A stretch of DNA of 64,000 nt from Escherichia coli (GTDB lineage Bacteria; Pseudomonadota; Gammaproteobacteria; Enterobacterales; Enterobacteriaceae), in NCBI RefSeq assembly GCF_051903065.1, contig NZ_CP178438.1; one strand, given 5' to 3'. Under the pieces are notes generated by a model. That model was given only the letters and a program-made list of their open reading frames with translations, made no database searches and was not told where the DNA came from. Position 1 is the stretch's first letter. Every line of letters starts with the position of its first letter. The position numbers and the translations under genes were made by a program. This document shows, one piece after another, positions 6,045 through 25,716 of this stretch.

Positions 6045-6093
6045 TAATCCTTTTCTTTCTGGCGCTACTCGCTACTGGTCACATGAAGATTCA

Positions 6094-6777
6094 TCAATGC
6101 AGACAGCACCTCTTAAATTTTTTACCGCTGCCACACGGACACGGGTCATTTCGCCCGGGCATGTTTTCTGCCCCCTTCACTGGAACAGGCCGGGATGATG
6201 CCTCTGACATTCTCACTGACAACCAGTACTGATAAAGTGCCAGTGCAGCAGGCTGAATAAGGGAAATACTTTTCTCAAACTGCTCTCCGGTCATTTTCTC
6301 AAGTACAGGAAAATTCTTCTCCACGCCATGAAGAGCGATCACTTCCAGAGAAGGCCGTAACTCACCGGGAAGACCAGACCAGTCATCCAGTGACTTTCCT
6401 TTCATATAACCAAAACACCACTCTTCCACAATGGTATATTTTTCCCCCTTTACCTCACGCTCATTGAAAATCGGTTCAAACTGTTCAGGGGCCTCATACA
6501 GGCAGCCAGCGATATCGTTCATATGCTGAAAACACAGCCCCACAAAACGCGTCATCTCTTTTTCGGTGGTCCAGCGAGGGTGGTAATCACCTCGCCCCCA
6601 GATAGCACTGAGCCAGGTATTAGGGGAAATCGTATTCGGGCCAGAGACAATCGCTGTCAGAAAGCCATCCAGCTCAGAGAAACAGAGCACAGAATCATCA
6701 TTGCCGTATTTCAGCAACACCTCTTCCAGCCAGTCGATTTCCCGGTCAATCAGCGGCCCGCTTTTCGTCAGTTTCAT
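6094..6777 (-). CDS. YecA-like UPF0149 protein with C-terminal SEC-C zinc motif, embedded between hsdS and hsdR
   Basis: 227 aa; C-terminal GRNDPCPCGSGKKFKRCC; start ATG overlaps hsdS stop (ATGA). Confidence 0.8.
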   Translation of the reverse strand: MKLTKSGPLIDREIDWLEEVLLKYGNDDSVLCFSELDGFLTAIVSGPNTISPNTWLSAIWGRGDYHPRWTTEKEMTRFVGLCFQHMNDIAGCLYEAPEQFEPIFNEREVKGEKYTIVEEWCFGYMKGKSLDDWSGLPGELRPSLEVIALHGVEKNFPVLEKMTGEQFEKSISLIQPAALALYQYWLSVRMSEASSRPVPVKGAENMPGRNDPCPCGSGKKFKRCCLH

Positions 6778-8012
6778 TCGGCAACCGCCTCATCGACCTT
6801 AACACGACGTTTGCCAGTCAGTAGCTGTTGCATCAGGGCTTTTTTCTCATCTCTCAGGCAGGCGAGTTTTTTCTCCAGCGTGGAGATTTCGGCATCGGCG
6901 ACGGACAGGACGGCGGCGATTTTTTGTTGTTCTCTTATACTGGGTAAGTCTAGTTCAAACTCTTTAACCATTCCGGCGTTTAGGTTGGACTGTGTACCTT
7001 GCTGGCCTTGTAGTTTTATTTTTTCTTTTAATGATGTAAGATAGAAATATAAAAACTCATAATTTAAACAATCTTTTGGTCTAATACCCAAGATTGCCTG
7101 CGAAGATGTTAAATTTACAGCAGCAATGCTGCATTCACCTATAGAAGCATACATAGCATAAAGAACCGAGTTTTTTGGATATATTCTTGCGGATGAACTG
7201 TTCAATCCTAATTCAGTCAGATATTTTTCAGTTGTAGCAATCCACTTTCCATTAGATGTCATATCAGAAATAGATACCCATGGGATATTCCCGCCATAAT
7301 ACTCTTCAACCGTTGATTTCGGAGTACCTCCACTGTTCATATCGGCTATCGCACCCAGTTTTACTCTCTTCCACTCCCCACTAAACCTCACCCCATTCTC
7401 ATCCAGCAAGCGTTTCTTCCCGGTAAGTAATTGCTGCATCAGGGCTTTTTTCTGCTGCTGACTATTGGCGAGCAGCTTTTCCGTCACTGAAATCGCGTTA
7501 TCCCAGGTTGACAAGATTTTGGCTATTTTCTTTTGTTCCGCCAGTGGGGGGAGTAATACAGGAAAACCGCAAACATCATCACGTGTAATATTAGGGTCTT
7601 TACGACTACTTGCCGCAAATTTCTTCCATAATTTTACATTCCCGTTTAAGTAATTCAGGATATATGCTGGTTCTGCTTTATCACGATCGAGTATAAGACC
7701 GGATAATGCTTGGTTTATTGCTGCCGGTATAGTGAGAAGTCCAGTTCTTCCGATCTGGTTAAAGCCTCCATACATCGCTACTAAAACAGTACCAACAGGA
7801 AATACAGAGCAAGATGTTTCTAAAAGGGCTGTGTCAGTAATTTTCTCATCAGTTGAGATAATTTCACCGTTATTTAGGTCTAATGTCTTTACCCATGGAG
7901 TACCAGCAGTAGAAAAATAACGCTCTCCCTCAGCCCTCAGCGGAGTAGATCCAGATTTAATTTTTGCTATGTCCGATAATTTGACATGTCTCCAGCCAGG
8001 TTTGAGCTTCAT
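6774..8012 (-). CDS. hsdS: Type I R-M specificity subunit
   Basis: Two target-recognition domains with repeated conserved spacer motif KKALMQQLLTGK(K/R)R. Confidence 0.85.
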   Translation of the reverse strand: MKLKPGWRHVKLSDIAKIKSGSTPLRAEGERYFSTAGTPWVKTLDLNNGEIISTDEKITDTALLETSCSVFPVGTVLVAMYGGFNQIGRTGLLTIPAAINQALSGLILDRDKAEPAYILNYLNGNVKLWKKFAASSRKDPNITRDDVCGFPVLLPPLAEQKKIAKILSTWDNAISVTEKLLANSQQQKKALMQQLLTGKKRLLDENGVRFSGEWKRVKLGAIADMNSGGTPKSTVEEYYGGNIPWVSISDMTSNGKWIATTEKYLTELGLNSSSARIYPKNSVLYAMYASIGECSIAAVNLTSSQAILGIRPKDCLNYEFLYFYLTSLKEKIKLQGQQGTQSNLNAGMVKEFELDLPSIREQQKIAAVLSVADAEISTLEKKLACLRDEKKALMQQLLTGKRRVKVDEAVAE

Positions 8013-9565
8013 AAGCTATCCTCTTGCATACTGAAGTTTTCTCTTTCACCATAACCCAACTCCTTCAGATAACCCGCCATCTCTGTTTCGAGTTTTGACA
8101 GTTCCACTTTCAATTGCTCACGTTCGGCACGCACAGCCAGCAAGTCAATCTCGTCTTCTTCCTCAAAGGTATCGACATAGCGCGGAATATTGAGGTTGTA
8201 ATCGTTGTCCTGAATTTCCTTCAGGCTGGCGAGATAGGCGTATTTCTCGACGTTATCGCCATCACGGTAGGTCTTGACGATTTTCTTAATGTTTTCTTCG
8301 CTAAGCTGGTTCTGGTTTTTACCTGCCTTGAATTCACGGCTGGCATCGATAAACAGCACCTTATCATCAACTTTCTGCTTTTTGAAAATCAGAATCGCAG
8401 CCGGAATCCCCGTACCGTAGAACAGTTTTTCCGGCAGACCAATTACCGCATCCAGCAAATTTTCGTCGATCAGTTTCTGGCGAATTTTACCTTCGCTGGA
8501 GCCACGGAAAAGCACACCGTGTGGCACAACTACGCCCATACGGCCAGTTCCCGGTTTCAGGGTTTCGATCATATGCGAGATAAAAGCGTAATCTCCTTTA
8601 GTCTTCGGCGGTACACCGCGACGAAAACGGCCAAACTTATCGTTCTCAGCCTCGTCATGGCCCCACTTATCCAGGCTGAACGGTGGGTTAGCGGTCACGA
8701 TATCAAACAGCATCAGGTCGCCATTTTTATCGAGCAGTTTCGGGTTACGAATGGTATCGCCCCACTCGATTTTATGGTTGTCTTCGCCGTGCAGGAACAT
8801 GTTCATTTTCGCCAGCGACCACGTGGAGCCAATCGCTTCCTGACCAAACAACGCATAATTACGGCTGTTATGTCCGGAGACAATTTTACGTCCGCACTTC
8901 ATCAATAACGAACCAGAGCCGCAGGCCGGATCGCAGATGGTATCACCCGGTTGCGGATCAAGCAGTTCAGCAATCAGGTCTGAAACTTCTGGTGGGGTAT
9001 AGAATTCCCCGGCTTTCTGCCCACCGCTGGCGGCAAAGTTTTTGATCAGATATTCGTAGGCATTACCGATAACGTCCAGCGTACCTACACGGCTTGGCTT
9101 CAGGTTGAGATCTTCACCGGCGAAGTCTTCCAGCAACTGACGCAGGATGGTGTTCTTCTGTTTTTCTTCACCCAAGCGGTCAGTGTTAAACGAAATATCC
9201 TGGAACACGCTTTTCCCGGCATCTTTCAGTTTGGTTCCGTTGGCTTCTTCGATTGCATGCAGAGCCTGATCGATACGCTCACCGTTACCCGGCTCATGGC
9301 GGCGTTCGTACAGCGCATAAAAGCTGGCACTTTTTGGCAGTACAAAACGCTCGTTGGCCATCATCGCTTCAATCAGTTCCGGCGCATCGCCATACTGTTC
9401 TTTGTATTCGTCATAGTGATCCTGCCAGACATCTGAAATGTACTTGAGGAACAGCATGGTAAGGATAAAGTCTTTATAGGTATCAGCACTGATGGTGCCA
9501 CGGAACGTATCACACGCGGCCCACAGGGCTTTGTTGATCGTGTCCTGACTGATTTTGTCGTTCAT
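8009..9565 (-). CDS. hsdM: Type I R-M N6-adenine DNA methyltransferase
   Basis: 518 aa; NPPF catalytic motif; AdoMet-binding DPACGSG; 4-bp overlap with hsdS. Confidence 0.9.
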   Translation of the reverse strand: MNDKISQDTINKALWAACDTFRGTISADTYKDFILTMLFLKYISDVWQDHYDEYKEQYGDAPELIEAMMANERFVLPKSASFYALYERRHEPGNGERIDQALHAIEEANGTKLKDAGKSVFQDISFNTDRLGEEKQKNTILRQLLEDFAGEDLNLKPSRVGTLDVIGNAYEYLIKNFAASGGQKAGEFYTPPEVSDLIAELLDPQPGDTICDPACGSGSLLMKCGRKIVSGHNSRNYALFGQEAIGSTWSLAKMNMFLHGEDNHKIEWGDTIRNPKLLDKNGDLMLFDIVTANPPFSLDKWGHDEAENDKFGRFRRGVPPKTKGDYAFISHMIETLKPGTGRMGVVVPHGVLFRGSSEGKIRQKLIDENLLDAVIGLPEKLFYGTGIPAAILIFKKQKVDDKVLFIDASREFKAGKNQNQLSEENIKKIVKTYRDGDNVEKYAYLASLKEIQDNDYNLNIPRYVDTFEEEDEIDLLAVRAEREQLKVELSKLETEMAGYLKELGYGERENFSMQEDSL

Positions 9566-9937
9566 GAATCATCCTGGTCTGAAGAAAAAGCTAGCGATGC
9601 AGGGCTTTGCATCTTAAAAATTGCGGTAAATGATACCGTAAGATGCCTCCCCTGACACGCCAATATCGCAGCATTCAGGTTTGCATCATCCCCGTAATAT
9701 CGACATGAGACAGACTGACACAACCTGGCTCGTCACTCGCTAAAAACCAATTATCTTAGTAAGATAGCATCCATATTAGCCATGGTGTAAAACTGCCGTT
9801 GGGGTAATGATGATCCATATATCACCCGTTCTGGTGTGTGGAGCTGACATGATCCATAATCGGCAACGTTGATGCCCTTTGATAGTAATGATGACCGTCA
9901 ATGTGATTCCCCTGCTGACTGGAGGTCTCCGGATAGA

Positions 9938-11104
9938 ATGAGTATTGCCAACTGCGCTATCGGCCCACTTTATGATGAGCAAATAAAAAAAACACTTATG
10001 TATGCTGACCATAAATTCAAGCGGCTAATGAATACACGAATGTCGTTACTCGAACATTTATCACCCCACTATGACTTATCTTCCATGTTCAGCTATGAGT
10101 TGGAGGGAAGAGTTTTTCGGATTAAATTGATCAAGCCTGAGATTAAATTATCTCGCCAGCAGTTGATCTTCTCCTCACTCTTTTTAGAGCATGATTTTCT
10201 AAAAGAATATAAAAAACACATCTCAAATACTCTACAAAAAACAATCAAACAGTGCATTAAAAAACACAAACAAAAAATCAAAATCGAGCCTTCTATTTTA
10301 GATTACATATCAGCGTCACCCCGCAATACGTCGAGTTATGTATTACATGAGATAGTTTTTGAATCTAAACATTGCGATGAAATTCGCAATATTAAAAATG
10401 ATATATTGCTTGATGAACTAACGTTGAATGGCCGGATCACTAACATTTCAAAATACATTAAAAATAGTCAAGATAAAATCGTCGAACATATAGAGTTCTG
10501 CACTCATAAATTTGTCAATATAAGTCGTAAGAACCGGCACATTTTCAACACCACCACAATATCTGGCAGAAAACCTAACATCACTGGTGTTTTACTTTGC
10601 CTTTCAGAATTGATAAGCAACCTGCATATTTACCCAACTGAAATTAATAATATAAGCAATGCCATAATATTAAGCATTGCATACTCTGTACTTCAACATC
10701 TTCAATCCGGAAGAGAAACAGAAAAAACCAAAACCTCTCCAGCACTGGATTTTATCCCCACCATCATCGCACCTCATGTTTTCTACCTGGCGAAACGCGA
10801 AAAATCCTCTCAATATAAATACATTGAAAAAGAATATCTTCTCGGCCAGTTACTTATATTTTTGATGTATAAAACAGTTTACTACTCGATTCATAGCATC
10901 AGGGTAAGCCGTAAGCATTTCTATAATGATATAAAACCAAAATTAGTGACACTAAAAAAAGAAAGCTTATTAAGCACCAATTTCATGAAAAATCGAAGAG
11001 AGATTAGTGGTGAAGTCTTTGGTGATGTTGGTAGTATTGAGGCTGATTTTCGAGAAATCAGTACACTGATTCATCGGCGGAAGGCATTATTTATTTCCTT
11101 TTAA
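9938..11104 (+). CDS. Hypothetical protein, AT-rich, Lys/Ile/Asn-rich, no recognised domain
   Basis: Long ORF (track 9869..11104); start at 9938 chosen where composition turns AT-rich; start uncertain. Confidence 0.45.
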   Translation: MSIANCAIGPLYDEQIKKTLMYADHKFKRLMNTRMSLLEHLSPHYDLSSMFSYELEGRVFRIKLIKPEIKLSRQQLIFSSLFLEHDFLKEYKKHISNTLQKTIKQCIKKHKQKIKIEPSILDYISASPRNTSSYVLHEIVFESKHCDEIRNIKNDILLDELTLNGRITNISKYIKNSQDKIVEHIEFCTHKFVNISRKNRHIFNTTTISGRKPNITGVLLCLSELISNLHIYPTEINNISNAIILSIAYSVLQHLQSGRETEKTKTSPALDFIPTIIAPHVFYLAKREKSSQYKYIEKEYLLGQLLIFLMYKTVYYSIHSIRVSRKHFYNDIKPKLVTLKKESLLSTNFMKNRREISGEVFGDVGSIEADFREISTLIHRRKALFISF

Positions 11105-11610
11105 CTTTAAAACGATAAAAACAAATGAGAGACTGAATAAATATCAGCCTCTCACATAGTTAATAAGTTTCAACTTTAATATCTGAGAAATCATTCTATC
11201 TGGGCCTTGTGGACATTAATCCTCCTGGCAACATACGACTCAAAGTTTCAGCCTTGTATAGCCATCATAAATAGTACAGGATTGGGTGCTGCTCGCATGT
11301 ATCATTCTGGTATTAATACTGATCATCAGGGGTAACTTGTATGTAATTTAAAAACCATCATATCTCAAATCTCACAATGCTCATATTTTAACCATAAAAA
11401 CTAACCGATTTACACCCGCCATATATTATCATAACTTATTGTATTTAAATGGCTATAAGCCTCTAACTCACTGATTACACCATTAAATTCAAGCCATATC
11501 CTTACGCAGATACAAGCTTGCCCCTGCTGCCATTCACGTTTTAGGATTACCTCGCTAACACGACATGCTACTTTTTAAATCAGTGTAATAATTCAAACGA
11601 GGATAAAATT

Positions 11611-12741
11611 ATGTTCGAGAAAATGAAAAACAATGTAACCCGTATACCGGGGAATTTAACAAAACTTAATCAATACCAAAAAGACATTGATCACCTGTCT
11701 AAACTATTTTCTGAACAGCAATTACTGGAACTAATGACGACTACCGAATCCGATCAAATATTGCAAATGAAGCCTGCTGTAGATATTCTTCATGTACTAT
11801 CTCCATCAGCATCTACTGCTAAGCATATCAATTTTTTTCAGCACGTCCCAGTGCTCGAACAATGGTTAAAAAAGGAGTGCACTGCCTTTAATTTACTGGC
11901 AGTACATTTCTATTCACAGCAATCCCGTAAAAATGTCATTCCGAAAGAAATCTGTATGCTACTGGATGCATTTATTAAAACTGAACTTTCATCTGCGGTT
12001 AATGGTAATAATAATGCCGAACTCCTTTCTTGTTTTCAAAACACGCTGGATAAAATGTGCAATACACTAACATTTATAGACCACACAGTTACGGAACAAT
12101 CAGGTCAAGTAGCAATGCTTGATTTCAGCGCAAAAATGCATGAATATACTGTTGAAATCAGGACCTTTTTGAAGTCTGAATACTGGCTAAACAAACTACC
12201 TAAGGATATTAATATTCCATCCATTGACCTATCCTGGCTTGTGTTTTGTTACTTTTGCTCTGAATATCTTTTTGTATTTATTCAAACAACGCTCAATACA
12301 ATGAAGGCAGGAAAAATCATTCGTGATAACTACCTTTATCATCCTAAAATGATTGCATTGATCATTTTATCTATGCTGCCTTATGAAGTCATTCATAACG
12401 ATGGATCACTGAGTGAGTTTAAAACGCCTTTAACCAGCCCTGATGAGTTCATAATCAAATCTATTTGCATTAAAGGTAAGCAAAACACTACAGGGCATAA
12501 AAAAGATATAGAACAATTGCTTCGTAAGACATATATCTATATTGCATTACTCTTAAACCCTGAGTGGGCACCATCTTCCAAGGAGTTGATTTCCTTTTTA
12601 TCAGGAAAGTCCACAGTGATAAGTGGTTCACTCAACTTCCAGTCAACCTCCAGTGGTCTGGGTGTTCAAACAAACAATATCACTCTTCTTAAGAATGAGG
12701 TTTACTTCGAAAAAATAGCGAACAAGATCATGAAACTGTAG
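11611..12741 (+). CDS. Hypothetical protein, AT-rich, no recognised domain
   Basis: 376-aa ORF with GAGGA RBS upstream of ATG. Confidence 0.5.
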   Translation: MFEKMKNNVTRIPGNLTKLNQYQKDIDHLSKLFSEQQLLELMTTTESDQILQMKPAVDILHVLSPSASTAKHINFFQHVPVLEQWLKKECTAFNLLAVHFYSQQSRKNVIPKEICMLLDAFIKTELSSAVNGNNNAELLSCFQNTLDKMCNTLTFIDHTVTEQSGQVAMLDFSAKMHEYTVEIRTFLKSEYWLNKLPKDINIPSIDLSWLVFCYFCSEYLFVFIQTTLNTMKAGKIIRDNYLYHPKMIALIILSMLPYEVIHNDGSLSEFKTPLTSPDEFIIKSICIKGKQNTTGHKKDIEQLLRKTYIYIALLLNPEWAPSSKELISFLSGKSTVISGSLNFQSTSSGLGVQTNNITLLKNEVYFEKIANKIMKL

Positions 12742-12884
12742 TTTCTTAATATAATGGCGACATGGAATTGTGTTGCCATTATATCCGAATCTGCGTTTTT
12801 TCACCTGATGAACTGTGAAAGCTGTAACTGGCAGACTATAACCTCACATCGTATTTTTCCAGTGTCATTTACAGGAGAAATACG

Positions 12885-14021
12885 ATGCCTATTCTGGATC
12901 TGCGTTTCAGCAACAAATCACTTCACCAACTTCTACATCCCCTCACGGGTTGTCAGGAATACCGTGATATTCACTGCCAAAACCTGCGTGCTCTGGTGTA
13001 TCCCAATCGGATCACGCTGGCCTTTCGTGCCACTATAAACAATCAGCGTATATATGAAACCCTGGGTCAGTTCCCTCAGCTCTGCGTTGAGGATGCCCGT
13101 CAGCATGTGATGAAACTGCTTGCTGATAAAAATCGTCTTGCGGTTCAGTCCCGTCGATTCACTGTGGAACAGGCCATCAATGACCTGTGGCTACCGGATT
13201 TGCAGTTGTATAAAAAGAGTCCTCAGTCAGAGTTGTCAAAACTCAACCTCTACGTTCGCCCGTTCTGGGGCAAGCGGCAACTTCGCGACATCACGGCAGG
13301 AGAACTAGAACAATATGCTGCTGGCTTACGGGAAAAATTACGTCCGTCAACAGTAAACCGTATCCTCGCAATATTGTCCAAAATATGCTCTCTGGCAGTA
13401 CGTGCTGGATGGATCACGCATTCCCCGATGTCACATGTCCGCTATCTGAAAGAAAATAACATTCGCTATCGCACACTGTCAGCGACAGAAATCCCGCGCT
13501 TTATTGACGCGGCAACAGCGCTGCAAACACCGGCAGCTGATTCTATATTGCTTGCTCTTTATACGGGGATGCGTATTGGTGAGGTATGTACCCTGAAATG
13601 GGAGTACTGGCACCCGGATATGCATCAACTCATACTGCCTGATACAAAGTCCGGACACCCTTTCACCTGCCCACTTGCACCTCCAGCCATTGCAGTTGTC
13701 CAGTGCCAGCAGGACCTGATGCTCAGCAAAACTTACATTTTTCCACAACTAACCGACAATGTCCGCCCTCTGGCATATCCGCGTGCAACCTTTGCCCGTA
13801 TTTGTCGGGATGCCAACATTGATAACCTGCGGATGCATGACCTGCGCCGTACCTTTGCCACCCGGGTACTACAGGCGACCGGGGATATTGCAATCGCTTC
13901 CCATCTGCTAAATCACCATTCACTCACGGCGACCCGTCGCTACGCTTTTCACAATGCAGCGACATCACACGCAGTGGTTTCTCAGGTCATAGAAAGTTAT
14001 GACACAAAAATGAACCTATGA
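12885..14021 (+). CDS. Tyrosine recombinase / phage-type integrase
   Basis: C-terminal catalytic motifs HDLRRTFAT and LNHHSLTATRRY; AGGAG RBS. Confidence 0.8.
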   Translation: MPILDLRFSNKSLHQLLHPLTGCQEYRDIHCQNLRALVYPNRITLAFRATINNQRIYETLGQFPQLCVEDARQHVMKLLADKNRLAVQSRRFTVEQAINDLWLPDLQLYKKSPQSELSKLNLYVRPFWGKRQLRDITAGELEQYAAGLREKLRPSTVNRILAILSKICSLAVRAGWITHSPMSHVRYLKENNIRYRTLSATEIPRFIDAATALQTPAADSILLALYTGMRIGEVCTLKWEYWHPDMHQLILPDTKSGHPFTCPLAPPAIAVVQCQQDLMLSKTYIFPQLTDNVRPLAYPRATFARICRDANIDNLRMHDLRRTFATRVLQATGDIAIASHLLNHHSLTATRRYAFHNAATSHAVVSQVIESYDTKMNL

Positions 14022-14163
14022 TCTGTGATTCGTGATTGATGCAACACTCGTTTAAGGACGGTATTGTCATTGCATGCTTCTGCAGGGCCCTGCATTAAGT
14101 CATCAAAGAATGTGGATTGATATTAAATCCGCGTGGTTTCTTCTTCTCTAAAACCGGAGGTTT

Positions 14164-14364
14164 ATGTATTTAACCATTAAGCAGTTTGCAGAAAGATTTA
14201 ATCTTTCCGCATCCACGGTTGCGTCAGATATATCGCGCAACCCAGGAAAACTCCCGCCCTTCATCAGAATTGGGCGGGCTATACGATTCTCTCTTGATGA
14301 TATTGTTGAGTGGGAAAATGCACATCGTCAAAACAAACTTAAAGGTGATATAAATGGTTACTAA
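14164..14364 (+). CDS. AlpA/Xis-like small HTH DNA-binding protein (putative excisionase)
   Basis: 66 aa, position downstream of integrase, GGAGG RBS. Confidence 0.6.
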   Translation: MYLTIKQFAERFNLSASTVASDISRNPGKLPPFIRIGRAIRFSLDDIVEWENAHRQNKLKGDINGY

Positions 14365-14410
14365 GAACACAGCAAATAATGCTAATAATGCACTGAACAT
14401 TCTTCCTGAA

Positions 14411-14419
14411 GCAGCAAAC
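14411..14419. repeat. 9-bp target-site duplication gcagcaaac (left copy; right copy at 15477..15485)
   Basis: Identical 9-mers directly flank the IS903-like element. Confidence 0.85.
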
Positions 14420-15476
14420 GGCTTTGTTGAATAAATCGAACTTTTGCTGAGTTGAAGGATCAGATCACGTATCTTCCCGACAACGCAGACCGTTCCGTGG
14501 CAAAGCAAAAGTTCAAAATCACCAACTGGCCCACCTACAATAAAGCCCTCATCAACCGTGGCTCCATAACTTTCTGGCTGGATGATGAAGCTATTCAGGC
14601 CTGGTATGAGTCAGCAACACCTTCTTCACGAGGCAGACCTCAGCGCTATTCTGACCTTGCCATCACGACTGTGCTGGTCATTAAACGCGTATTCAGGCTG
14701 ACCCTGCGCGCTGCGCAGGGCTTTATTGATTCCATTTTTTCTCTGATGAACGTTCCGCTACGCTGCCCGGATTACAGCTGTGTCAGCAGGCGGGCAAAGT
14801 CGGTTAATGTCAGTTTCAAAACGCCCACCCGGGGTGAAATCGCACACCTGGTAATTGATTCCACCGGGCTGAAGGTCTTCGGTGAAGGCGAGTGGAAAGT
14901 CAAAAAGCATGGCCAGGAACGCCGCCGTATCTGGCGTAAGCTGCATCTCGCCGTTGACAGTAAAACACATGAAATCATCTGCGCTGACCTGTCGCTGAAC
15001 AACGTTACGGACTCAGAGGCCTTCCCCGGGTTAATCCGGCAAACCCACCGGAAAATCAGGTCAGCCGCCGCCGATGGCGCTTACGATACCCGGCTATGTC
15101 ACGATGAACTGCGGCGTAAGAAAATCAGCGCGCTTATCCCTCCCCGAAAAGGTGCGGGTTACTGGCCCGGTGAATATGCAGACCGTAACCGTGCAGTGGC
15201 TAATCAGCGAATGACCGGGAGTAATGCGCGGTGGAAATGGACAACAGATTACAACCGTCGCTCGATAGCGGAAACGGCGATGTACCGGGTAAAACAGCTG
15301 TTCGGGGGTTCACTGACACTGCGTGACTACGATGGTCAGGTTGCAGAGGCTATGGCCCTGGTACGAGCGCTGAACAAAATGACGAAAGCAGGTATGCCTG
15401 AAAGCGTGCGTATTGCCTGAAAACACAACCCGCTACGGGGGAGACTTACCCGAAATCTGATTTATTCAACAAAGCC
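14420..15476 (+). mobile_element. IS903-like element (IS5 family), 1057 bp with terminal inverted repeats
   Basis: Terminal IRs ggctttgttgaataaatcg / cagatttattcaacaaagcc; transposase ORF; 9-bp flanking duplications. Confidence 0.85.
14452..15420 (+). CDS. IS5-family (IS903 group) DDE transposase
   Basis: ORF inside the IS; N-terminus QKFKITNWPTYNKALINRGSITFWLD; true start may be internal. Confidence 0.85.
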   Translation: MKDQITYLPDNADRSVAKQKFKITNWPTYNKALINRGSITFWLDDEAIQAWYESATPSSRGRPQRYSDLAITTVLVIKRVFRLTLRAAQGFIDSIFSLMNVPLRCPDYSCVSRRAKSVNVSFKTPTRGEIAHLVIDSTGLKVFGEGEWKVKKHGQERRRIWRKLHLAVDSKTHEIICADLSLNNVTDSEAFPGLIRQTHRKIRSAAADGAYDTRLCHDELRRKKISALIPPRKGAGYWPGEYADRNRAVANQRMTGSNARWKWTTDYNRRSIAETAMYRVKQLFGGSLTLRDYDGQVAEAMALVRALNKMTKAGMPESVRIA

Positions 15477-16065
15477 GCAGCAAACACAGCTGTAGACAAC
15501 GATGAAAAATATCTGTCCTTTGCATTAGTTCTCGCTATCACGATTATGGACAACTTAGTAAAGCTCATCGGCACAGATGGCTTCGTACTTTATACCTACA
15601 CCCTGCAGGACACGGCTACTGCTCGTGCTGTTTTTAATGAATTAGCCAGGCGTCTCAAAAATTTCAATCGTCAGGAGGAGGTCTACACCACCGATTCCCT
15701 CACCTTTCGAATGAAATACATTTACGGTGTTACCCTGTTCGAACATGATAGTAAATCTATCCTTAACCTCTTTGATAAGAAGGGTTATCCGGTATTGAGT
15801 GAATCAGGAGAACCCGGTTCTCTTGATGATATGTATCTTGACATTCAAGCCCGATTACATGGCGGCTACGCCTCAAAAAAGTTTCTTCATTTACATGAAC
15901 ATTGTCTGTTATCTGCACACGTTACCCCGTCTGTGGAAAAGACGCAACGCGGTATCCTGATTAAAGTAGGCAGGAAACTCGTTTCCTTTATCCATGTAGA
16001 TGATGAATCACACAAAACCGATATTTTCAAATCTGTAGTAAATGTTATTAAATCTTGATTCTTTA

Positions 16066-16093
16066 TGCCGGGACACAGCTCCCGGCATTTTTT
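16066..16093 (+). terminator. Hairpin plus T-tract just upstream of the piPolB start
   Basis: tgccggga-cacagc-tcccggca followed by tttttt. Confidence 0.5.
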
Positions 16094-16104
16094 CGGAGTT
16101 AACT

Positions 16105-18705
16105 ATGAGCAATAATTTGCAGGACATCCTCGCTGCCGCCTCGGGGTATCAGTCCGTGACTTCAGAGCCAGCGTTCAATCGTAAAAGACCTAAAACGCTT
16201 GATGATTATCCTGTGATACCACCTGCATCAAAAAAAGTATCTGTTATTTCAAGTGACCTGACACTCCATATCGGTTTTGATACCGAATATGTTTTCAACC
16301 CTGAAACACGACAGAATGATATTCTGTCATATCAGAGTTATGTTGTCTTACCCGATAATACAGGTATATCGAACATTATCTATCCACCTGACTCACAGAA
16401 AAAATCCCGGCTGTCTTTTAAGGAATTTCTCTGTCAAACGATTACACCGCTTCTTGAAACGGGTGTGATTACAAAATGGCCCGGTATTATTAATATATAT
16501 GCGCATTTCATTCGTGCGGATATCGCCTCCTTTGCCAATTTCTGGTCAGACTACAAAATTCTTCTGAAAGGAATACGCGGTACTGTCAGCAGCTTCAAAA
16601 ATCGTTACGGTATCGATTTTGATGAACAGCAGGAACGTCGCGTAAAGACTGAACAGATAATGTTTGACAAACGAACTTCCCCTCCGCGTTGCAGTAACGT
16701 AGCTTTCATCGATACACTGCTTATCACTCCCGGGGGTATGGGTCTGGCTGAATGTGGTGAATTACTGGGTCTTCCCAAACTCACCATTCCTGCACCTTAT
16801 TCCATAACCAATATGCGTGAATATCTTCTGGGCGACAGAGCAGGGTTTGAAGCCTATGCTCTGCGGGATGCCGAGATTGCGGTTCGTTATGCTTTACAGG
16901 TTCGCAATTTTTGCGCCCGGGAGCTGATGATTGATCGTGTCCCCGCCACCATCGGGGCGATGGCAGTTTCACGGTTCACCAAAACACTTAAAGAAAACAA
17001 TATGTCTCCTGAAGTCTGCCTTGGGACACACATTAAAACCCGTGAACTCTGGCTCACGGAGAAACAGGCATTCCGGACGATTAAAAACCCCGCCAGTGTT
17101 CCTTCAAGAGAGTTGTTTGAAACGTTCCCGATCAACTGTTACCACGGCGGACGCAATGAGTGTTTTATGATGGGGGTTACACCGTCTGATCACTGGTATG
17201 ACTACGATCTGGCTGGAGCGTATACCACCGGGCTATTAGATATCCTCACACCCGATTACGGGAACATCCGCCTCAGTAAAAATCCGGACGATTACTGTGG
17301 GCATGTAATGGGATTTGCGCTTGTCACATTTCGGTTCCCGGAATCAGTTCCCTATCCCAGCCTGCCGGTTCGGACCGATCAATATGGGTTATTCTTTCCA
17401 TTAAGTGGCGAATCATGGGCAACGGCACCTGAAATCGAACTTGCTCTGTCGCTCGGGGCAGAGATGACGATCCATAATGGGATCATCGTCCCCTGGATCT
17501 GTGACACCTCCCCACATAACAGCGAATCAACATCGGTGTTTCTTCCCTTTGTTCAACAGGTCCGTGAGAACCGTAATCGCCATATTAAAGGTTCTCTGGA
17601 GGAGAAATTCTGGAAAGAAATTGGCAACTCGCTTTATGGCAAACTTGCTCAGGGCCTTCGCGCCAAAACCGCCTTTGATACTGCCCGTGGATTAAACAGA
17701 TCCCTCCCACCATCATCGGTTACTCAGCCATTCTTTGCTGCGCATGTGACGGGATTTATCCGCGCCGTTGTCGGGGAACTCATGAATGCTTTGCCTTCTG
17801 ATTCATCGGTTGTCAGCGTCACAACCGATGGTTTTTTGACAAATTGCCCACTTGACAAGATAAACATGAGCGGTCCACTGTCTTCCCGCTTCCAGTCGCT
17901 GTGCGATATTGTTGATCCGGGTTCATCAATGTTGACATGTAAGCATGAGGTCAGCCAGCTTATCGCCATGAAAACCCGGGGGCAGTTAACCTATAGAGCT
18001 ATTCAGGGAAAACCTGTTGTTCATGCCAGGGCTGGCGTCAAACCTCCTGCCGATATTCCACGCAGTGACTATAACGACTATATGGTAGATCTTTACCTTA
18101 ATCGTTTACCCGGTCAGACGTTATCCCGAAGTACGTTGATATCAACGCGTGAGATGTGGCTCTCGGAAAGCGATCTGGTATCCCGGGAACAGGATATCCG
18201 TCTTAATCTGGAATTCGATTTCAAACGCCAGCCCGTACAGCCCGCCATGAATGAAGGGCATTTACTGATGTTTTCCCGCCCGTGGGATAATATGGAAGAG
18301 GCTCTGCAGCAACGCTCTCTTTTCGACGACTGGCGGCAAACGCATACACTGAAGACCCTGGCTGACTGGGATGACTGGTGTGATTTTCTCTATTGCCGGA
18401 CGGTGTTTTCTGATATGAAACTAAAAGTCGGAAGCAAACGTAGTGATGATATTTTAGTCAGACTATTTCTCCGGGCGCTGACTCAGTGCCAATGGGGGCT
18501 GATGCTGAAAGATAAAAAAAGTTATTCCTGTAAAGAGGTTGCTGAATGGCTGACGTCAGAAGGCTATTCAGTAACGGTGACTGATGTAAAAAATGCGGTA
18601 AGAGCAAAAATACCCCAAATGAAATTTAGTTCTGTAACACCGCGAATGAAGTCACTGATGGATATCATAGCCCGTAAATATCCGACATTCTGTCTTCCAG
18701 TCTGA
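16105..18705 (+). CDS. Family-B DNA polymerase of the primer-independent (piPolB) type
   Basis: Exo I FDTEY, Exo III YALRD, motif B NSLYGKL, motif C VTTDG, and KTRG in place of KxY; start taken at MSNNLQ after GGAG. Confidence 0.8.
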   Translation: MSNNLQDILAAASGYQSVTSEPAFNRKRPKTLDDYPVIPPASKKVSVISSDLTLHIGFDTEYVFNPETRQNDILSYQSYVVLPDNTGISNIIYPPDSQKKSRLSFKEFLCQTITPLLETGVITKWPGIINIYAHFIRADIASFANFWSDYKILLKGIRGTVSSFKNRYGIDFDEQQERRVKTEQIMFDKRTSPPRCSNVAFIDTLLITPGGMGLAECGELLGLPKLTIPAPYSITNMREYLLGDRAGFEAYALRDAEIAVRYALQVRNFCARELMIDRVPATIGAMAVSRFTKTLKENNMSPEVCLGTHIKTRELWLTEKQAFRTIKNPASVPSRELFETFPINCYHGGRNECFMMGVTPSDHWYDYDLAGAYTTGLLDILTPDYGNIRLSKNPDDYCGHVMGFALVTFRFPESVPYPSLPVRTDQYGLFFPLSGESWATAPEIELALSLGAEMTIHNGIIVPWICDTSPHNSESTSVFLPFVQQVRENRNRHIKGSLEEKFWKEIGNSLYGKLAQGLRAKTAFDTARGLNRSLPPSSVTQPFFAAHVTGFIRAVVGELMNALPSDSSVVSVTTDGFLTNCPLDKINMSGPLSSRFQSLCDIVDPGSSMLTCKHEVSQLIAMKTRGQLTYRAIQGKPVVHARAGVKPPADIPRSDYNDYMVDLYLNRLPGQTLSRSTLISTREMWLSESDLVSREQDIRLNLEFDFKRQPVQPAMNEGHLLMFSRPWDNMEEALQQRSLFDDWRQTHTLKTLADWDDWCDFLYCRTVFSDMKLKVGSKRSDDILVRLFLRALTQCQWGLMLKDKKSYSCKEVAEWLTSEGYSVTVTDVKNAVRAKIPQMKFSSVTPRMKSLMDIIARKYPTFCLPV

Positions 18706-18753
18706 TAACCGTTAAATCTCCCCCAACTCCTTTAACAGAAGTTGGGGGCTTAA

Positions 18754-19080
18754 TCACAGGCAATCGGCATCAAAACAGTGAAATAACTGCCGCGCGTCAG
18801 GATGGCCATTTACATGATAGATCCGCATGGCATGACAGGTGATACTCTGGAGATTAGCCGCCAGCCTTTTCCCCATATTCACCAGTATGCCGTGTGGTAT
18901 TTTACTGCTTGTACTGTTTACTGTCAGAGTAAAACAATTTGTTTCAACGCTGACCTCAATAAAATCATTTCCAAATAATGTACCGACAACCTGCCTGATT
19001 GTTTCTTCATAATCTGTCAGATCAATGACATCACGCCATCTCGCATTTACGAGTTGATACTTTCTGATATGTAAATACAT
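18754..19080 (-). CDS. Hypothetical protein (108 aa)
   Basis: ORF with AAAGGTGG RBS. Confidence 0.45.
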   Translation of the reverse strand: MYLHIRKYQLVNARWRDVIDLTDYEETIRQVVGTLFGNDFIEVSVETNCFTLTVNSTSSKIPHGILVNMGKRLAANLQSITCHAMRIYHVNGHPDARQLFHCFDADCL

Positions 19081-19299
19081 AGAACCACCTTTATGTTATT
19101 TCAACTAATATGATGTTCTCCGATATTATGAAAATATTAATCATCATTGTAATTGCTGATAACCTCTCTAACCTTCGGATCTTACGTTCCCCCCTGCCTC
19201 TCCGACTTGATGGCAAAAGTGCATGGTCAAATATGCAGCAAAAACATGTCATGTACAGGTCAGGATAATAATTATCACCCTGAACTTAAAAATACACAT

Positions 19300-19410
19300 G
19301 GACAGGATGAGTCCACATGTTATTCGATGATTCCAGCAATGTTTTAATATATTGATAATTAATGAGTTAATTTTTTTCTCCGTCACAGTAAAAGTGGACT
19401 CATCCTGTCC
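19300..19410. repeat. Perfect 17-bp inverted repeat pair (19300..19316 and 19394..19410) around a 77-bp AT-rich spacer, upstream of the WYL regulator gene
   Basis: ggacaggatgagtccac and its exact reverse complement gtggactcatcctgtcc. Confidence 0.7.
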
Positions 19411-19459
19411 GTTACTTTGCTGAAAATATCCTCTTCGCTGGCATTAACCGGATAAACGA

Positions 19460-20362
19460 ATGGGTAAGCACGATAAACTTGGATATCGACTCGGATTGAT
19501 ATTAACTCGCCTGAACAATGGTGAGTCACTAGCCGTCCGGGAGTTATCTGAGGAATTTAACGTTTGCGAAAAAACTATCCGTCGCGATCTTACTCAGCGC
19601 CTGTCCTATCTTAATCTGATTCGACAAAATGGTCGCTATCGCCTGTCTGACGGTGTTCTCGGTCAACGCAGCAATGCTGATTTACGTCATTTCACGCGCA
19701 TCCTGGGTATTGAAGGGCTGTTCCCTCGCTGGGATGACAGACTACTGAGTATTTTGTTAGGTAACACGAAAAATAACCCGTTTCTGATAAAACAACGTCC
19801 ATACGAAAACTGCGGATCATTCATGTCAATTCTGAATGTATTATCCGATGCCATCCTGTCACAGAAGAAAGTAAATTTTAATTACAAAGATAAAGAGTTT
19901 CGGGCTGTTGAGCCATACAGACTGGTTAATGACAACGGATTGTGGTATCTCGCTGCCGCCCATGACAGTACATTAAAAAGCTTTGTTATCTCATCTGTCA
20001 AAGACGTTTGCATGAGTAATATCTCTTTCAGGATAATCCCCGAAATTAATGAAAAAATAGAAAAGACAGATGGTATCTGGTATAGCGAAGACCTTATCGA
20101 AGTTCTCATTTCAGTTTCCGCACATGTTGCTCCGTGGTTTACCCACCGTCATCTATTGCCAGGACAGGAAATAATTCATACTTCCCGGTCTGGCGATTTA
20201 CTGGTGATATCACGTGTAACACACACAGATCAGATAATGCCTTTAATGAAATACTGGATACCGGATGTCGAAGTAATACAACCGGCCTCAATCCGTCAAC
20301 AACTTGCTGAAGATATACAATCCGCACTGAAACGTTACACCCAGCCAAGTAACGCCCCGTAA
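19460..20362 (+). CDS. WYL-domain transcriptional regulator (HTH-WYL-WCX; YafY/BrxR/CapW-like)
   Basis: N-terminal HTH ([21 protein letters not shown]), central GLWYL signature. Confidence 0.75.
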
Positions 20363-20423
20363 TGACACGGATAATATAATTTTCATTAAGTGCTATTTTT
20401 ATAAGCTAAAAAATGGAGTTACC

Positions 20424-21242
20424 ATGAAAAAATGCCCGGTTCTTCTTGTTGTATCAGGGTTTCTGACCGAAAATGATATATCATGGTTTAACCGAATTAA
20501 AGCAGGGTGTGGCCTTGATGTCAGATACTATAAATGGGAATCGGCAAATCTACTATCCATATTAAGTTCTGACATAGCGAACAAGTGGGGGTTATATACT
20601 CTCTTCCCCCTGAGAACATCTCCTTTATTGTCATCAATCTCCATTCCATTTAAAGCGCGTCAGGCCTGGTATAATGCAACGAAAGCAGCAGTTAATAACA
20701 GAGAAAAATTAGCACACGTAATAAACGAGATATACGTTAAAGAAAAGCGTAATGTGATCATAATGGGTCATTCTTTAGGGACTCGATTAATAAACAATAC
20801 ATTACCCTATATAAAAAATGATAATATTCTCTTAACAATCTCTATGGCCGGAGCCACCCCAATAACAAGTTATACAGAGAACATAATGAAAATGGCTTAC
20901 GGTTCAAAAATGGGGCATTTAAATATCTACAGTGAACATGATAAAGTACTTAACACGATATACCCTCTCGTAGAGTCAGTAACGCCAATTGGGGTTCGGG
21001 AGGTGAGATTCAGACCTGCTCGGGTGATCAACTGGAAGTGGGATATTGGTCACACTGAATATATTACTTCAAACAGGATTGATTCATTAACACACTGGTT
21101 AAATGTTACCTGTGCCGATTTAGCTGATCCAGCCGTAGAAATCACTGACGACGACATGAAATCATTTCATGATATTATTAATCTTGCGAATTTAACATGT
21201 CATAAAAACACTGTCGCACCTAAATTAATATCATTTGAGTAG
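20424..21242 (+). CDS. Putative alpha/beta hydrolase (GHSLG nucleophile elbow)
   Basis: 272 aa, IIMGHSLGTR motif; GGAG RBS; 61 bp downstream of the WYL gene. Confidence 0.55.
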   Translation: MKKCPVLLVVSGFLTENDISWFNRIKAGCGLDVRYYKWESANLLSILSSDIANKWGLYTLFPLRTSPLLSSISIPFKARQAWYNATKAAVNNREKLAHVINEIYVKEKRNVIIMGHSLGTRLINNTLPYIKNDNILLTISMAGATPITSYTENIMKMAYGSKMGHLNIYSEHDKVLNTIYPLVESVTPIGVREVRFRPARVINWKWDIGHTEYITSNRIDSLTHWLNVTCADLADPAVEITDDDMKSFHDIINLANLTCHKNTVAPKLISFE

Positions 21243-21261
21243 TTAAAAAAAGGTTGCATTA

Positions 21262-21300
21262 TAACGGGAGTGTATATTTACTCCCGTTAAGTTTCATATT
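21262..21300. terminator. Stem-loop between convergent hydrolase and small HTH genes
   Basis: taacgggag-loop-ctcccgtta, T-rich downstream. Confidence 0.45.
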
Positions 21301-21372
21301 TTATAGAATTGATATGGGGTGATGCTGCCAACTTACTGATTTAGTGTATGATGGTGTTTTTGAGGTGCTCCA

Positions 21373-21648
21373 GTGGCTTCTGTTTCTATCAGCTGTCCCT
21401 CCTGTTCAGCTACTGAAGGCGTGGTGCGTAACGGTAAAAGTACTGCCGGACATCAGCGCTATCTCTGCTCTCACTGCCGTAAAACATGGCAACTGCAGTT
21501 CACTTACACCGCTTCTCAACCCGGTACGCACCAGAAAATCATTGATATGGCCATGAATGGCGTTGGATGCCGGGCAACCGCCCGCATTATGAGCGTTGGC
21601 CTCAACACGATTTTCCGCCATTTAAAAAACTCAGGCCGCAGTCGGTAA
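21373..21648 (+). CDS. insA: IS1 InsA
   Basis: 91-aa ORF. Confidence 0.85.
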
Positions 21649-22070
21649 CCTCGCGCATACAGCCGGGCAGTGACGTCATCGTCTGCGCGGAAATGGACGA
21701 ACAGTGGGGCTATGTCGGGGCTAAATCGCGCCAGCGCTGGCTGTTTTACGCGTATGACAGGCTCCGGAAGACGGTTGTTGCGCACGTATTCGGTGAACGC
21801 ACTATGGCGACGCTGGGGCGTCTTATGAGCCTGCTGTCACCCTTTGACGTGGTGATATGGATGACGGATGGCTGGCCGCTGTATGAATCCCGCCTGAAGG
21901 GAAAGCTGCACGTAATCAGCAAGCGATATACGCAGCGAATTGAGCGGCATAACCTGAATCTGAGGCAGCACCTGGCACGGCTGGGACGGAAGTCGCTGTC
22001 GTTCTCAAAATCGGTGGAGCTGCATGACAAAGTCATCGGGCATTATCTGAACATAAAACACTATCAATAA
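21567..22070 (+). CDS. insB: IS1 InsB reading frame (expressed as InsAB' by -1 frameshift)
   Basis: 167-aa ORF overlapping insA. Confidence 0.8.
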
Positions 22071-22100
22071 GTTGGAGTCATTACCTTGATATGGATTCGA

Positions 22101-22328
22101 TTAAAAATTTCGTCTAACTCGTTCCCTTATCAAACTTGCCAGCCTTACCCTTCCAGGTGAAATAGTTTCCGTTACAGTTTCAACTCTCAACAAATCACGC
22201 TGTCCGGTTCGGCGACTGACCGCGAAACGCTGACATATATCATTAACCGATACCGTATTACCGGTATACAGTTGAAGTAATATCCAGCACAGCCTTTCTG
22301 CGATCCTTTCACCGCGAGTTTTATACAT
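22101..22328 (-). CDS. Small HTH DNA-binding protein (75 aa)
   Basis: HTH-like VSVNDICQRFAVSRRTGQRDL; GAAGG RBS. Confidence 0.45.
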   Translation of the reverse strand: MYKTRGERIAERLCWILLQLYTGNTVSVNDICQRFAVSRRTGQRDLLRVETVTETISPGRVRLASLIRERVRRNF

Positions 22329-22629
22329 CTGTAAAACCTTCAGTTATCGTCAACGATGACATAGCCCACCTCAAAACCCACATAACTGACTGTATTCATG
22401 AACATTTATTACCGGTGTAATACTGTCGTTGGGGTAATGGATTAACCGTTATCACCCTGCTACAGGAGAATGCTCCATAGGGGGCAAAAACCACGAGGGA
22501 TCTGAGATCCCCCGTGTCTGCACTTGTTTATGCGAACAGCCAGGAAAAAGAGACATCATCTCCATGCTGTGATGCACGCCACATGCAGTAGATTACAAAG
22601 CCGCCCGCTTTCTTCCTGTTCATAACGGG

Positions 22630-23064
22630 TCAACAACTTTCCACAGTTACCGTTACCCGGTAAATCCCCATAGAGAGATACTCCATAAAATTACGCTCCC
22701 ACAGGGACCAGAGTTCATTCCTCTCTGCTGCCAGTGAAATATCCCCAATCAGATAATGGAATACATAATTCCCCGACCAGCAAAAATCAATTTCTTTTTC
22801 CAGCTCAGGGTAGACACGCCCCATATAACTAAAATCTGTGACATAATCAAAATACCATTCATTATTCTTACGGATAAACCGTATTTCAACGGGATGAAAG
22901 CCCCCGGATTCTGCACTGTAGTCCGGATCACGGAAATTAATAACCACTGCCTCAGTTATTTTTTGTAAAACCTGATTTGCCAGAAGAGTAGTAATATGCT
23001 GCTGAAATTCTTTAGTAACAGGCAGAGTTAATCCTGCCTGTTTTAAGGCATATTGGGTTTGCAT
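22630..23064 (-). CDS. Hypothetical protein, possibly DUF2787-like
   Basis: 144 aa; NFRDPDYSAESGGFHPVEI recalled as DUF2787-like; RBS present. Confidence 0.45.
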   Translation of the reverse strand: MQTQYALKQAGLTLPVTKEFQQHITTLLANQVLQKITEAVVINFRDPDYSAESGGFHPVEIRFIRKNNEWYFDYVTDFSYMGRVYPELEKEIDFCWSGNYVFHYLIGDISLAAERNELWSLWERNFMEYLSMGIYRVTVTVESC

Positions 23065-23136
23065 AATAAATTTTCCTTTAGAAAGTAAATAGCGGTGTGT
23101 GGTGATTTCTGGTTGTATAACAGTGCAGGAAATAAA

Positions 23137-23670
23137 TTAATCCTCTGTAATCTTTTCCTGGCTACTGATCGTATTAAGTTTATTCAACCGCTCCCTCCAG
23201 TCCGGGTATAATACATGAGTAAATAACTTCTCTGGATGTGCCTCCAGCAGACATATATCCGGGGAGCGTAAAACAGCAGCCAGAAAACCTGCATTGTTGG
23301 CGCTTGCCCCTTTGAATAGCGGCCTGAATACTCCGGATGAGAAGCCGGTAGCAGGTTGTGTTTCCAGAACGGTTGCAATCTTTGAAAGTGAGATCCAGTC
23401 CTTAGAGAACAACCCTCCACAGCCATTTGCCACCAGACGAAGATAAAGTTCATTGTCCACCTCTGATATCGCCAGTTGCCATGTCAGCATACCACTTGCC
23501 TTAGGACTGATTTTTTCTGCCTGGCCTGTTTCAATGAGCAACTGATAGTCTTTTACATCAGATAATGTTTGTTCATCTGCACTGAGATTTTCATGAATAA
23601 CCTCTGCCTCATTTTTAATCTCCTTCGAAACTGACTCAACATTATTTTTAACTAATTTTGATTTACTCAT
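23137..23670 (-). CDS. Hypothetical protein (177 aa)
   Basis: ORF with RBS. Confidence 0.45.
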   Translation of the reverse strand: MSKSKLVKNNVESVSKEIKNEAEVIHENLSADEQTLSDVKDYQLLIETGQAEKISPKASGMLTWQLAISEVDNELYLRLVANGCGGLFSKDWISLSKIATVLETQPATGFSSGVFRPLFKGASANNAGFLAAVLRSPDICLLEAHPEKLFTHVLYPDWRERLNKLNTISSQEKITED

Positions 23671-23695
23671 TTTGCGTTCCTGGTTTTGCTTGTGT

Positions 23696-24067
23696 TTAAT
23701 AGCGTGATTCGGCCATAGAAATTAATAAATCAATACCCTTCAGAGGGCAATCGGGGTGAAATAACAGATAAATACCGTTCCCGTTATCTTCCGTAACAGA
23801 AAGCATCAGGTAATAGTCATCTGTCAGACGGACTACAAATTCTGGATTTGCAATTAACTGATGAATCACATTTAATACCTGCGCTTTAATATCTTCAGGT
23901 ACATCATCGGGCTCGACATATATTAATGTCACCCCGACTTCATCCCAGAAACTCATTGCAGAGTATTCATCTTCAAATGGGAGTACCAGCTCTGTTTTCA
24001 ACAGACTCATTACTGACTCCGGAAGAGATAGTGATGGCAGACTTTGCCAGTTAGCGATAAACTTCAT
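23696..24067 (-). CDS. Hypothetical protein (123 aa)
   Basis: ORF with AAGGAT RBS. Confidence 0.45.
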   Translation of the reverse strand: MKFIANWQSLPSLSLPESVMSLLKTELVLPFEDEYSAMSFWDEVGVTLIYVEPDDVPEDIKAQVLNVIHQLIANPEFVVRLTDDYYLMLSVTEDNGNGIYLLFHPDCPLKGIDLLISMAESRY

Positions 24068-24163
24068 TGTTCAATCCTTATAAGTAAAAAACCCCGATAC
24101 AATTAACGTATCGGGGTTTTTATACATGCGCATAACTATTATTTACAGTTATTGGTTTTCTAT

Positions 24164-24406: not shown

Positions 24407-24436
24407 TCTCCATATTTATAGTTTGCTAAAAAGTAG

Positions 24437-25636: not shown

Positions 25637-25716
25637 ATTTATCCTCATGTATCTGATTGATATCATGAAAATAATATATATCTGAAGGTGTTTTTATTAC
25701 GGGGCAGGATTGAAGA

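Follow-up and report, generated by a model that had tools for sequence, protein, structure and literature searches.

The locus described here is best explained by transposition of a copy of the insertion sequence IS903B into a gene located immediately upstream of the primer-independent family B DNA polymerase (piPolB) gene of an Escherichia coli pipolin, with the resulting knockout of that gene; we put the probability of this explanation at about 0.93. The analysed stretch of DNA, 64 kb (64,000 nucleotides) in length, is referred to as the window. The disrupted gene, which has 212 codons and lies between the excisionase gene and piPolB, is named here X212. In the proposed course of events, an IS903B copy (IS5 family, DDE transposase) transposed into codon 22/23 of X212, and staggered cleavage of the target produced the 9-bp duplication that flanks the element. 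The event is a textbook insertional inactivation by a known IS. Jumps of IS903B into genes are routine when an IS expands, and the modest value of the observation lies in the target gene. The non-trivial by-product is the characterization of X212 as a conserved, fast-evolving and unannotated pipolin gene with a confidently predicted three-repeat fold and with natural knockouts.

The Element and Its Target Site

The initial annotation described an IS903-like element flanked by identical 9-mers, and each of the coordinates that it gave was correct on direct reading and in a script check (Table 1). The ends of the element are perfect inverted repeats (GGCTTTGTTGAATAAATC), and no further copy of this motif was found anywhere in the 64-kb window (0 expected in shuffles). 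The sole open reading frame (ORF) inside the element occupies its positions 78..1001 and encodes a transposase that scores 357.6 bits against the NCBIfam model NF033579 (IS5 family transposase; cut-off, 140). In the published table, the reference IS903B (X02527) has a length of 1057 bp and a 307-aa ORF at 78..1001 (PMC8796155). A nucleotide search showed that the element is 100% identical over the full 1057 bp to many copies on plasmids of Citrobacter, Salmonella and E. coli; at a coverage of ≥80%, the number of plasmids with a copy exceeds 5000. The plasmid copies that were compared carry the PGAP label “IS5-like element IS903B family transposase”, and X02527 was compared by length and ORF position. 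Because the ORF sits exactly at the X02527 positions and the match to annotated copies is 100%, the sequence identifies the element as IS903B itself, i.e., as more than merely IS903-like. The 18-bp inverted repeats and the 9-bp target duplication are likewise shared with the reference, and the element itself shows no differences from it; what has no precedent in the literature searched is its insertion into a pipolin gene.

Table 1. Features of the disrupted locus (positions in the window)
Feature	Coordinates	Strand	Basis
Tyrosine recombinase, “IntP2”-type pipolin integrase	12885..14021	+	NCBIfam matches; RefSeq annotation in near-identical genomes
Excisionase/AlpA-type HTH gene	14164..14364	+	NCBIfam TIGR01764 excisionase domain, E 3.5e-5; HTH_17 in homologous loci
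5' fragment of X212, codons 1-22	14354..14419	+	translation; start as called by PGAP in the intact allele
Left 9-bp target-site duplication, GCAGCAAAC	14411..14419	.	sequence reading
IS903B (IS5 family), complete, 1057 bp	14420..15476	+	identity to annotated plasmid copies; length and ORF position equal those of X02527
Left 18-bp terminal inverted repeat	14420..14437	+	sequence reading
IS903B transposase, GTG start, 307 aa, intact	14497..15420	+	translation; NCBIfam IS5 family transposase
Right 18-bp terminal inverted repeat	15459..15476	-	sequence reading
Right 9-bp target-site duplication, GCAGCAAAC	15477..15485	.	sequence reading
3' fragment of X212, codons 23-212 and stop	15486..16058	+	translation
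GC-rich hairpin with T-run, intrinsic-terminator-like, between X212 and piPolB	16065..16095	+	sequence reading
piPolB (primer-independent family B DNA polymerase), 866 aa, intact	16105..18705	+	catalytic residues

On the + strand of the window, GCAGCAAAC is present only twice, in the two copies that flank the IS. For an element with perfect inverted repeats, the probability of an identical 9-mer at both ends by chance is ~4^-9, a consideration that is irrelevant because the empty-site allele exists. When the IS and one 9-mer are removed, the two X212 fragments join in frame and restore an ORF of 639 nt, i.e., 212 codons and the stop, in agreement with the ~213 codons expected by the initial annotation. 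The reconstructed 945-bp empty site, with a single 9-mer, has ungapped matches of 100% identity in 14 or more complete E. coli genomes, and it is contiguous in 269 genomes; strains 203740 and ATCC 43886 are examples with an identical empty site. With X212 alone as the query, the gene was found in 280 E. coli genomes, in 272 of which it runs uninterrupted from the N- to the C-terminal part. For example, the intact allele of strain 203740 is annotated in RefSeq as one 639-nt CDS, WP_000256731.1, encoding a 212-aa “hypothetical protein”; its start is the one proposed in the initial annotation, and the CDS overlaps the excisionase-type HTH gene that precedes it.

A query spanning both IS junctions was compared to 5426 complete genomes, and the split allele was detected in two of these, 23CRST027 and 23CRST031, both from human faeces in Ecuador. 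Each of these genomes has ~20 IS903B places; the median is 2 among the genomes with any match to the query. A comparison of the window with 23CRST027 over 1601 bp shows one difference, a 1-nt indel in the transposase. Since the insertion occurs in one small lineage only, its flanks are 100% identical to the empty-site alleles, and the IS is 100% identical to plasmid copies, the sequence data point to a recent event, as the initial annotation had supposed, in which the IS moved by simple transposition while IS903B was expanding in this lineage. The placement of the IS could also have been an assembly artefact, in which a repeat was collapsed or misplaced, given that IS903B is multicopy in the related genomes and is a classic source of misassembly. 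However, the 9-bp duplication matches at both junctions, the 9-mer occurs once at the empty site, and two independently assembled complete genomes have the same junctions; the probability of such an artefact appears to be negligible.

X212 as a Pipolin Gene

The initial annotation held that the IS splits a gene. The alternative that the IS landed in an intergenic region, with the N- and C-terminal parts never contiguous in related islands, is decisively contradicted by the E. coli genomes with the intact gene and by the homologous loci. A word-indexed search and two profile rounds, the first of which was exhaustive (1.84 billion representatives), found homologues of X212 at 70%, 50%, 35% and 30% identity. 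The family is small, and its members were found only in Enterobacterales; the named sources are E. coli, Citrobacter, Lelliottia, Leclercia, Hafnia, Klebsiella aerogenes, Enterobacter, Buttiauxella and Intestinirhabdus. We compared 10 loci outside E. coli, namely three metagenomic contigs and seven species genomes from the named genera, and the two parts of the gene are contiguous in all 10. In all non-E. coli loci that are long enough, including those of Citrobacter, Buttiauxella, Intestinirhabdus and Enterobacter, the gene order is a 376-aa hypothetical protein, the tyrosine recombinase, the HTH_17 excisionase, X212 and piPolB. The start of X212 in the homologous loci abuts or overlaps the stop codon of the excisionase gene (the overlap is 11 nt in the window), which suggests co-transcription and translational coupling of the excisionase gene (xis) and X212. 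The uninterrupted allele is one annotated CDS, and the N-terminal part is kept in homologues down to 30% identity; on these comparisons, we consider the N-terminal piece to be coding and X212 to be a true coding gene that belongs to the core of enterobacterial pipolins. The reconstructed X212 protein had no match in Pfam, NCBIfam, PHROGs or PADLOC, nor in a PDB sequence-profile search.

As the initial annotation stated, the gene directly upstream of the polymerase is X212, and the polymerase is a bona fide piPolB. It has D59/E61 (ExoI), D368 (PolC), K613-H614 (KH motif) and KTRG at 623 (replacing KxY), and these residue numbers equal those of the characterised E. coli enzyme (PMC5695915). Its match to Pfam DNA_pol_B_2 is marginal.

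Predicted Effect of the Insertion on X212 and piPolB

The 5' fragment of X212 reads into the IS and meets a stop after four codons (GFVE*), so that its product would be a 26-aa stub (22 aa and GFVE). A Shine-Dalgarno sequence, AAGGTGAT, is located 7 nt 5' of the ATG at 14354. On the 3' side of the IS, no in-frame start was found for residues 23-42; the only in-frame start there is Met43, at 15546, and it has no Shine-Dalgarno sequence. Because the upstream product is a 26-aa stub and residues 23-42 lack a programmed start, the X212 protein is almost certainly inactivated by the IS. In the genomes that carry the IS, RefSeq annotates 15546..16058 as a hypothetical protein of 170 aa. According to the structural model described below, a product initiated at Met43 would be short of residues 23-42, i.e., of three strands of domain 1. 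We regard this 170-aa remnant as a pseudogene fragment, which may be produced at a low level in the IS-bearing strain.

The RefSeq call can be read differently, with the IS located in a 5' leader and the true protein starting at Met43, intact and functional. This reading would fit the properties of residues 1-22, which form a variable, low-complexity tail that is absent in a 200-aa subfamily and contains an in-frame 9-nt repeat expansion in one E. coli allele. However, the region that corresponds to residues 23-45 is retained in homologues down to 30% identity, with V25 and V37 invariant, whereas Met43 is not kept as Met in the distant homologues. In the model, residues 23-26, 31-33 and 37-43 are strands within a block with pLDDT of 90-96, so that residues 23-42 belong to three high-confidence strands of domain 1. 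The strong Shine-Dalgarno sequence precedes the start at 14354 and not Met43, every homologue begins at or beside the excisionase stop, and the long ORF is the one that PGAP annotates in every intact allele. A functional protein starting at Met43 is thus very improbable, and a knockout of X212 is the reading that we retain. By the model, the IS lies where the tail ends and the folded body of the protein begins.

With respect to the downstream gene, transcripts from the integrase/excisionase side would have to cross 1 kb of IS, which itself contains a terminator-like hairpin at 14702..14720, and the IS may lower read-through into piPolB. The expression of piPolB may depend on this read-through and might thus drop further. 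Such polarity is speculative, since X212 and piPolB are already set apart by a terminator-like hairpin (Table 1). Three other divergent lineages also have a hairpin, of differing sequence, in the gap between X212 and piPolB; none of these three has a clear T-run, and two of them have no T-run at all.

Evolutionary Rate and Other Lesions in the Module

X212 diverges several-fold faster than its neighbour genes. In Buttiauxella/Enterobacter-type loci, the amino acid identity to the window is 77-79% for the recombinase, 70-71% for piPolB, about 70% for the WYL protein, 56-58% for the excisionase and 30-32% for X212. In a Citrobacter locus (L014), the corresponding values are 99.2% for piPolB, 100% for the excisionase and 90% for X212. 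The dN/dS ratio (Nei-Gojobori) is 0.31-0.41 for X212, compared to 0.14-0.17 for the recombinase and 0.17-0.24 for piPolB, and pairwise values among the E. coli X212 alleles are 0.29-0.40. These ratios are indicative of relaxed purifying selection on X212. Gene-wide positive selection as the cause of the divergence was rejected, with pairwise dN/dS of 0.3-0.4 and not above 1. Recombinational mosaicism is possibly an added contributor because dS is also uneven. In three divergent subfamilies, the similarity of X212 ranks with that of the excisionase and not with that of piPolB or the recombinase; these three points are a weak hint that xis and X212 travel together.

The insertion could also be a selected event, in which X212 was silenced, with or without dampening of piPolB, or in which read-out transcription from the IS rewires the X212 remnant and the polymerase. 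Several other lesions in the same module might be taken in this sense: an IS3-family copy that interrupts X212 at nt 481 in the O145 strains RM9873-C1 and 12E115, an IS3-family element within piPolB of the O145 strain RM13516, and recurrent 179-aa frameshift alleles at an A6 run in assemblies. The dN/dS of X212, higher than that of its neighbours (0.3-0.4 versus 0.14-0.24), would point in the same direction, and the orientation of the transposase, which is that of X212 and piPolB, would be compatible with rewiring. Conversely, X212 is intact in 272 of the 280 genomes, the frameshift alleles may be homopolymer sequencing errors, and a search for an outward promoter-like site at the right end of the IS found none. 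The ~20 IS903B places in the IS-bearing lineage imply that a random hit in an IS burst is enough. We consider a selected event to be improbable, compared to the simple transposition and knockout proposed above. Because 272 of the 280 copies are intact, the decay of a dispensable module is a simpler reading of these lesions than selection against the module.

Predicted Fold and Possible Role of X212

AlphaFold with a 5-sequence alignment gave a pLDDT of 36.5, and a usable model (AF2; pLDDT 90.7, pTM 0.84) was obtained with 28 sequences, including the distant homologues. The model consists of three tandem units of ~65 residues, each with about five beta strands followed by a long helix (a beta-sandwich-plus-helix arrangement); the helices span residues 65-82, 136-149 and 196-211. 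Profile-profile alignment places the three repeats in register, with weak scores (E ~0.01, probability ≤5%), and the repeat architecture is thus predicted by the model and not by the sequence. In Foldseek searches, three uncharacterised proteins of 153-178 aa, two of them from Vibrio splendidus, A0A2T5ERY3, and Photobacterium galatheae, A0A066RMF1, matched the X212 model. The next-best matches outside the family were LytTR DNA-binding domains (AFDB50, E 1e-3 to 5e-2); in PDB, the matches were ComE 4cbv (E 2.7e-3) and 3d6w (target-normalised TM 0.53). The structural resemblance of X212 to PH-like and LytTR-like folds is weak. The sequence searches found no PH, bPH or LytTR profile for X212, with no Pfam match for the query at E≤10 and nothing below E 1.6 in the PDB profile search. 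When the 28 family members were compared to Pfam, only weak Hus1 and KN17 matches were obtained, with Hus1 in 9 of the 28.

The idea of a sliding clamp arose from the three-repeat architecture, the weak Hus1 matches and the position of the gene upstream of a polymerase. A clamp or processivity factor (PCNA/Hus1/DnaN) was rejected, with clamps appearing at a probability of ≤0.04 in the fold searches. A strong general DNA binder is not favoured because the pI within the family is 4.9-8.7. Tentatively, X212 might be a binding or adaptor protein without enzymatic activity that serves the excision/replication module, has a protein or a nucleic acid as its ligand and is co-expressed with the excisionase. 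A stronger and more doubtful proposal is that the pipolin excision/replication machinery requires X212 as a lineage-specific partner, that X212 consists of a previously undescribed triple PH-like/LytTR-like repeat, and that it evolves fast to track a changing partner. In such a role, X212 would couple the action of the excisionase to piPolB-driven replication, or would recognise the DNA of the element. If so, the IS903B and IS3-family knockouts would mark pipolins without autonomous mobility or replication (the frameshift alleles could be the same mark, provided that they are not sequencing errors), and a ready genetic test of what pipolins need for movement would be at hand.

Pipolin Context and Precedents

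The core set of gammaproteobacterial pipolins comprises IntSXT, IntP2 with an excisionase, DUF2787 and a WYL protein (PMC11551731, which is also the source of the IntP2 name used here). The annotation of a near-identical RefSeq genome contains two tyrosine recombinases, the excisionase, WYL, DUF2787 and type I restriction-modification (R-M) cargo. By these gene assignments, the gene set corresponds to the pipolin core set, with the SXT and P2 integrase subtypes taken by name. A tRNA-Leu(taa) gene is located at 26699..26785, with an adjoining tyrosine recombinase at 24437..25666. The locus thus shares with the described E. coli pipolins (PMC5695915, PMC7385651, PMC11551731) the piPolB hallmark, the two recombinases, the excisionase, WYL, DUF2787, the R-M cargo and the adjacency to tRNA-Leu. 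It differs from them in the absence of an att direct repeat within the window and in the presence of IS1 copies. No second att direct repeat was found in positions 1..26000 of the window; the missing repeat may be outside the window or may have been lost to IS activity, and the pipolin may be degraded.

Insertional inactivation of mgrB by IS903B is well documented in Klebsiella (PMC10513040, PMC8796155). The insertion in X212 resembles these cases in being a simple insertion with 9-bp direct repeats and 100% identity to plasmid donors, at the expense of a small gene. In contrast, the mgrB insertions are selected by colistin, have a known phenotype and affect a core regulon, whereas X212 belongs to a mobile element. 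Pipolin biology is poorly understood with respect to excision, replication, transfer and the genes required besides piPolB. The IS-bearing and empty-site strains are 100% identical around the site and constitute a natural isogenic-like pair in which a requirement for X212 in pipolin excision, replication or maintenance could be tested.

The 2024 survey of pipolins lists six enterobacterial core genes, including two unnamed “orphan” proteins, and reports ISs near the IntP2 integrase (PMC11551731). It should be noted that the IS903B-split allele was already present, undescribed, in two RefSeq genomes.

Evolutionary rates in the integrase-piPolB segment

Comparing X212, the IS903B-split pipolin gene between the excisionase and piPolB genes, and its neighbours to the loci L007 and L014-L020 from other genomes and metagenomic contigs, we found that the dN of X212 was 3- to 10-fold above that of the flanking integrase and piPolB genes. 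In the deep comparison, X212 retained 30% identity versus 70-79% for the integrase and piPolB, and in a Citrobacter locus it showed 90% identity where these two genes showed 99%. The dN/dS of X212 was 0.3-0.4, and its similarity ranking tracked that of the excisionase, not that of the polymerase. The 376-aa hypothetical gene, which was syntenic in every related locus long enough to reach that far, is also fast-evolving, with 28-41% identity versus 63-79% for the integrase; no family match was obtained for its protein.

Features of the pipolin and of the comparison loci
Feature	Location	Remarks
Partial IS1 with IS3-type fragment	window about 1370..1973	left-end repeat 1951..1973 (-)
376-aa hypothetical gene	window 11611..12741	upstream of integrase
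X212	window 14354..16058	split by IS903B
9-nt unit	window 14369..14395	X212 N-terminal tail
A6 run	window 15875..15880	inside X212
Hairpin after X212	window 16065..16095; L004 about 2366..2386; L005 about 6650..6670; L007 about 6615..6637	
IS1 copy	window about 21318..22085	between DUF726 and DUF2787 genes; left-end repeat 21318..21340 (+)
tRNA-Leu	window 26699..26785	att region
IS3-family insertion	L008 (E. coli O145 RM9873-C1) 3501..5500	coordinates of the segment; insertion at nt 481 of X212
IS3-family insertion	L013 (O145:H28 RM13516) 4689..8557	coordinates of the segment; insertion inside piPolB

Allelic variation and structural matches of X212

The A6 run is the site of the frameshifted 179-aa alleles (P0009, P0011 and P0012, 64 member sequences altogether), which are missing the third of the three tandem repeats; these frameshifts may be genuine, or they may reflect sequencing errors in the homopolymer. 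The copy number of a short coding tandem repeat, the 9-nt unit GCAAATAAT/GCTAATAAT encoding ANN, is variable as well: strain 23CRST012 (L012 401..1048) carries one extra in-frame copy. Beyond its own family, the best structural matches of X212 (Foldseek, E 2e-5 to 2e-3) were three uncharacterised AFDB proteins of 153-178 aa: A0A2T5ERY3 from Vibrio splendidus, A0A066RMF1 from Photobacterium galatheae, and A0A161YZ84. These might represent the Vibrionales counterpart of this pipolin gene.

Hairpin between X212 and piPolB

Directly 3' of the X212 stop codon and 5' of piPolB, a GC-rich hairpin is present in four divergent lineages, with stem sequences that are not alike. A clear T-run was seen in the E. 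coli hairpin only, which is therefore terminator-like. The hairpin may represent a conserved attenuator or protein-binding site for the control of piPolB.

Insertion sequences and the pipolin boundary

No further direct repeat of the tRNA-Leu att region was found within window positions 1..26800; therefore, the far boundary of the pipolin may lie beyond the window or may have been lost. The window contains two perfect IS1 left-end repeats, inverted relative to each other and bracketing the segment with the R-M, integrase and piPolB genes. IS3-family elements were inserted independently within the X212/piPolB module, and in the O145 lineage the integrase is truncated by another IS3-family copy.
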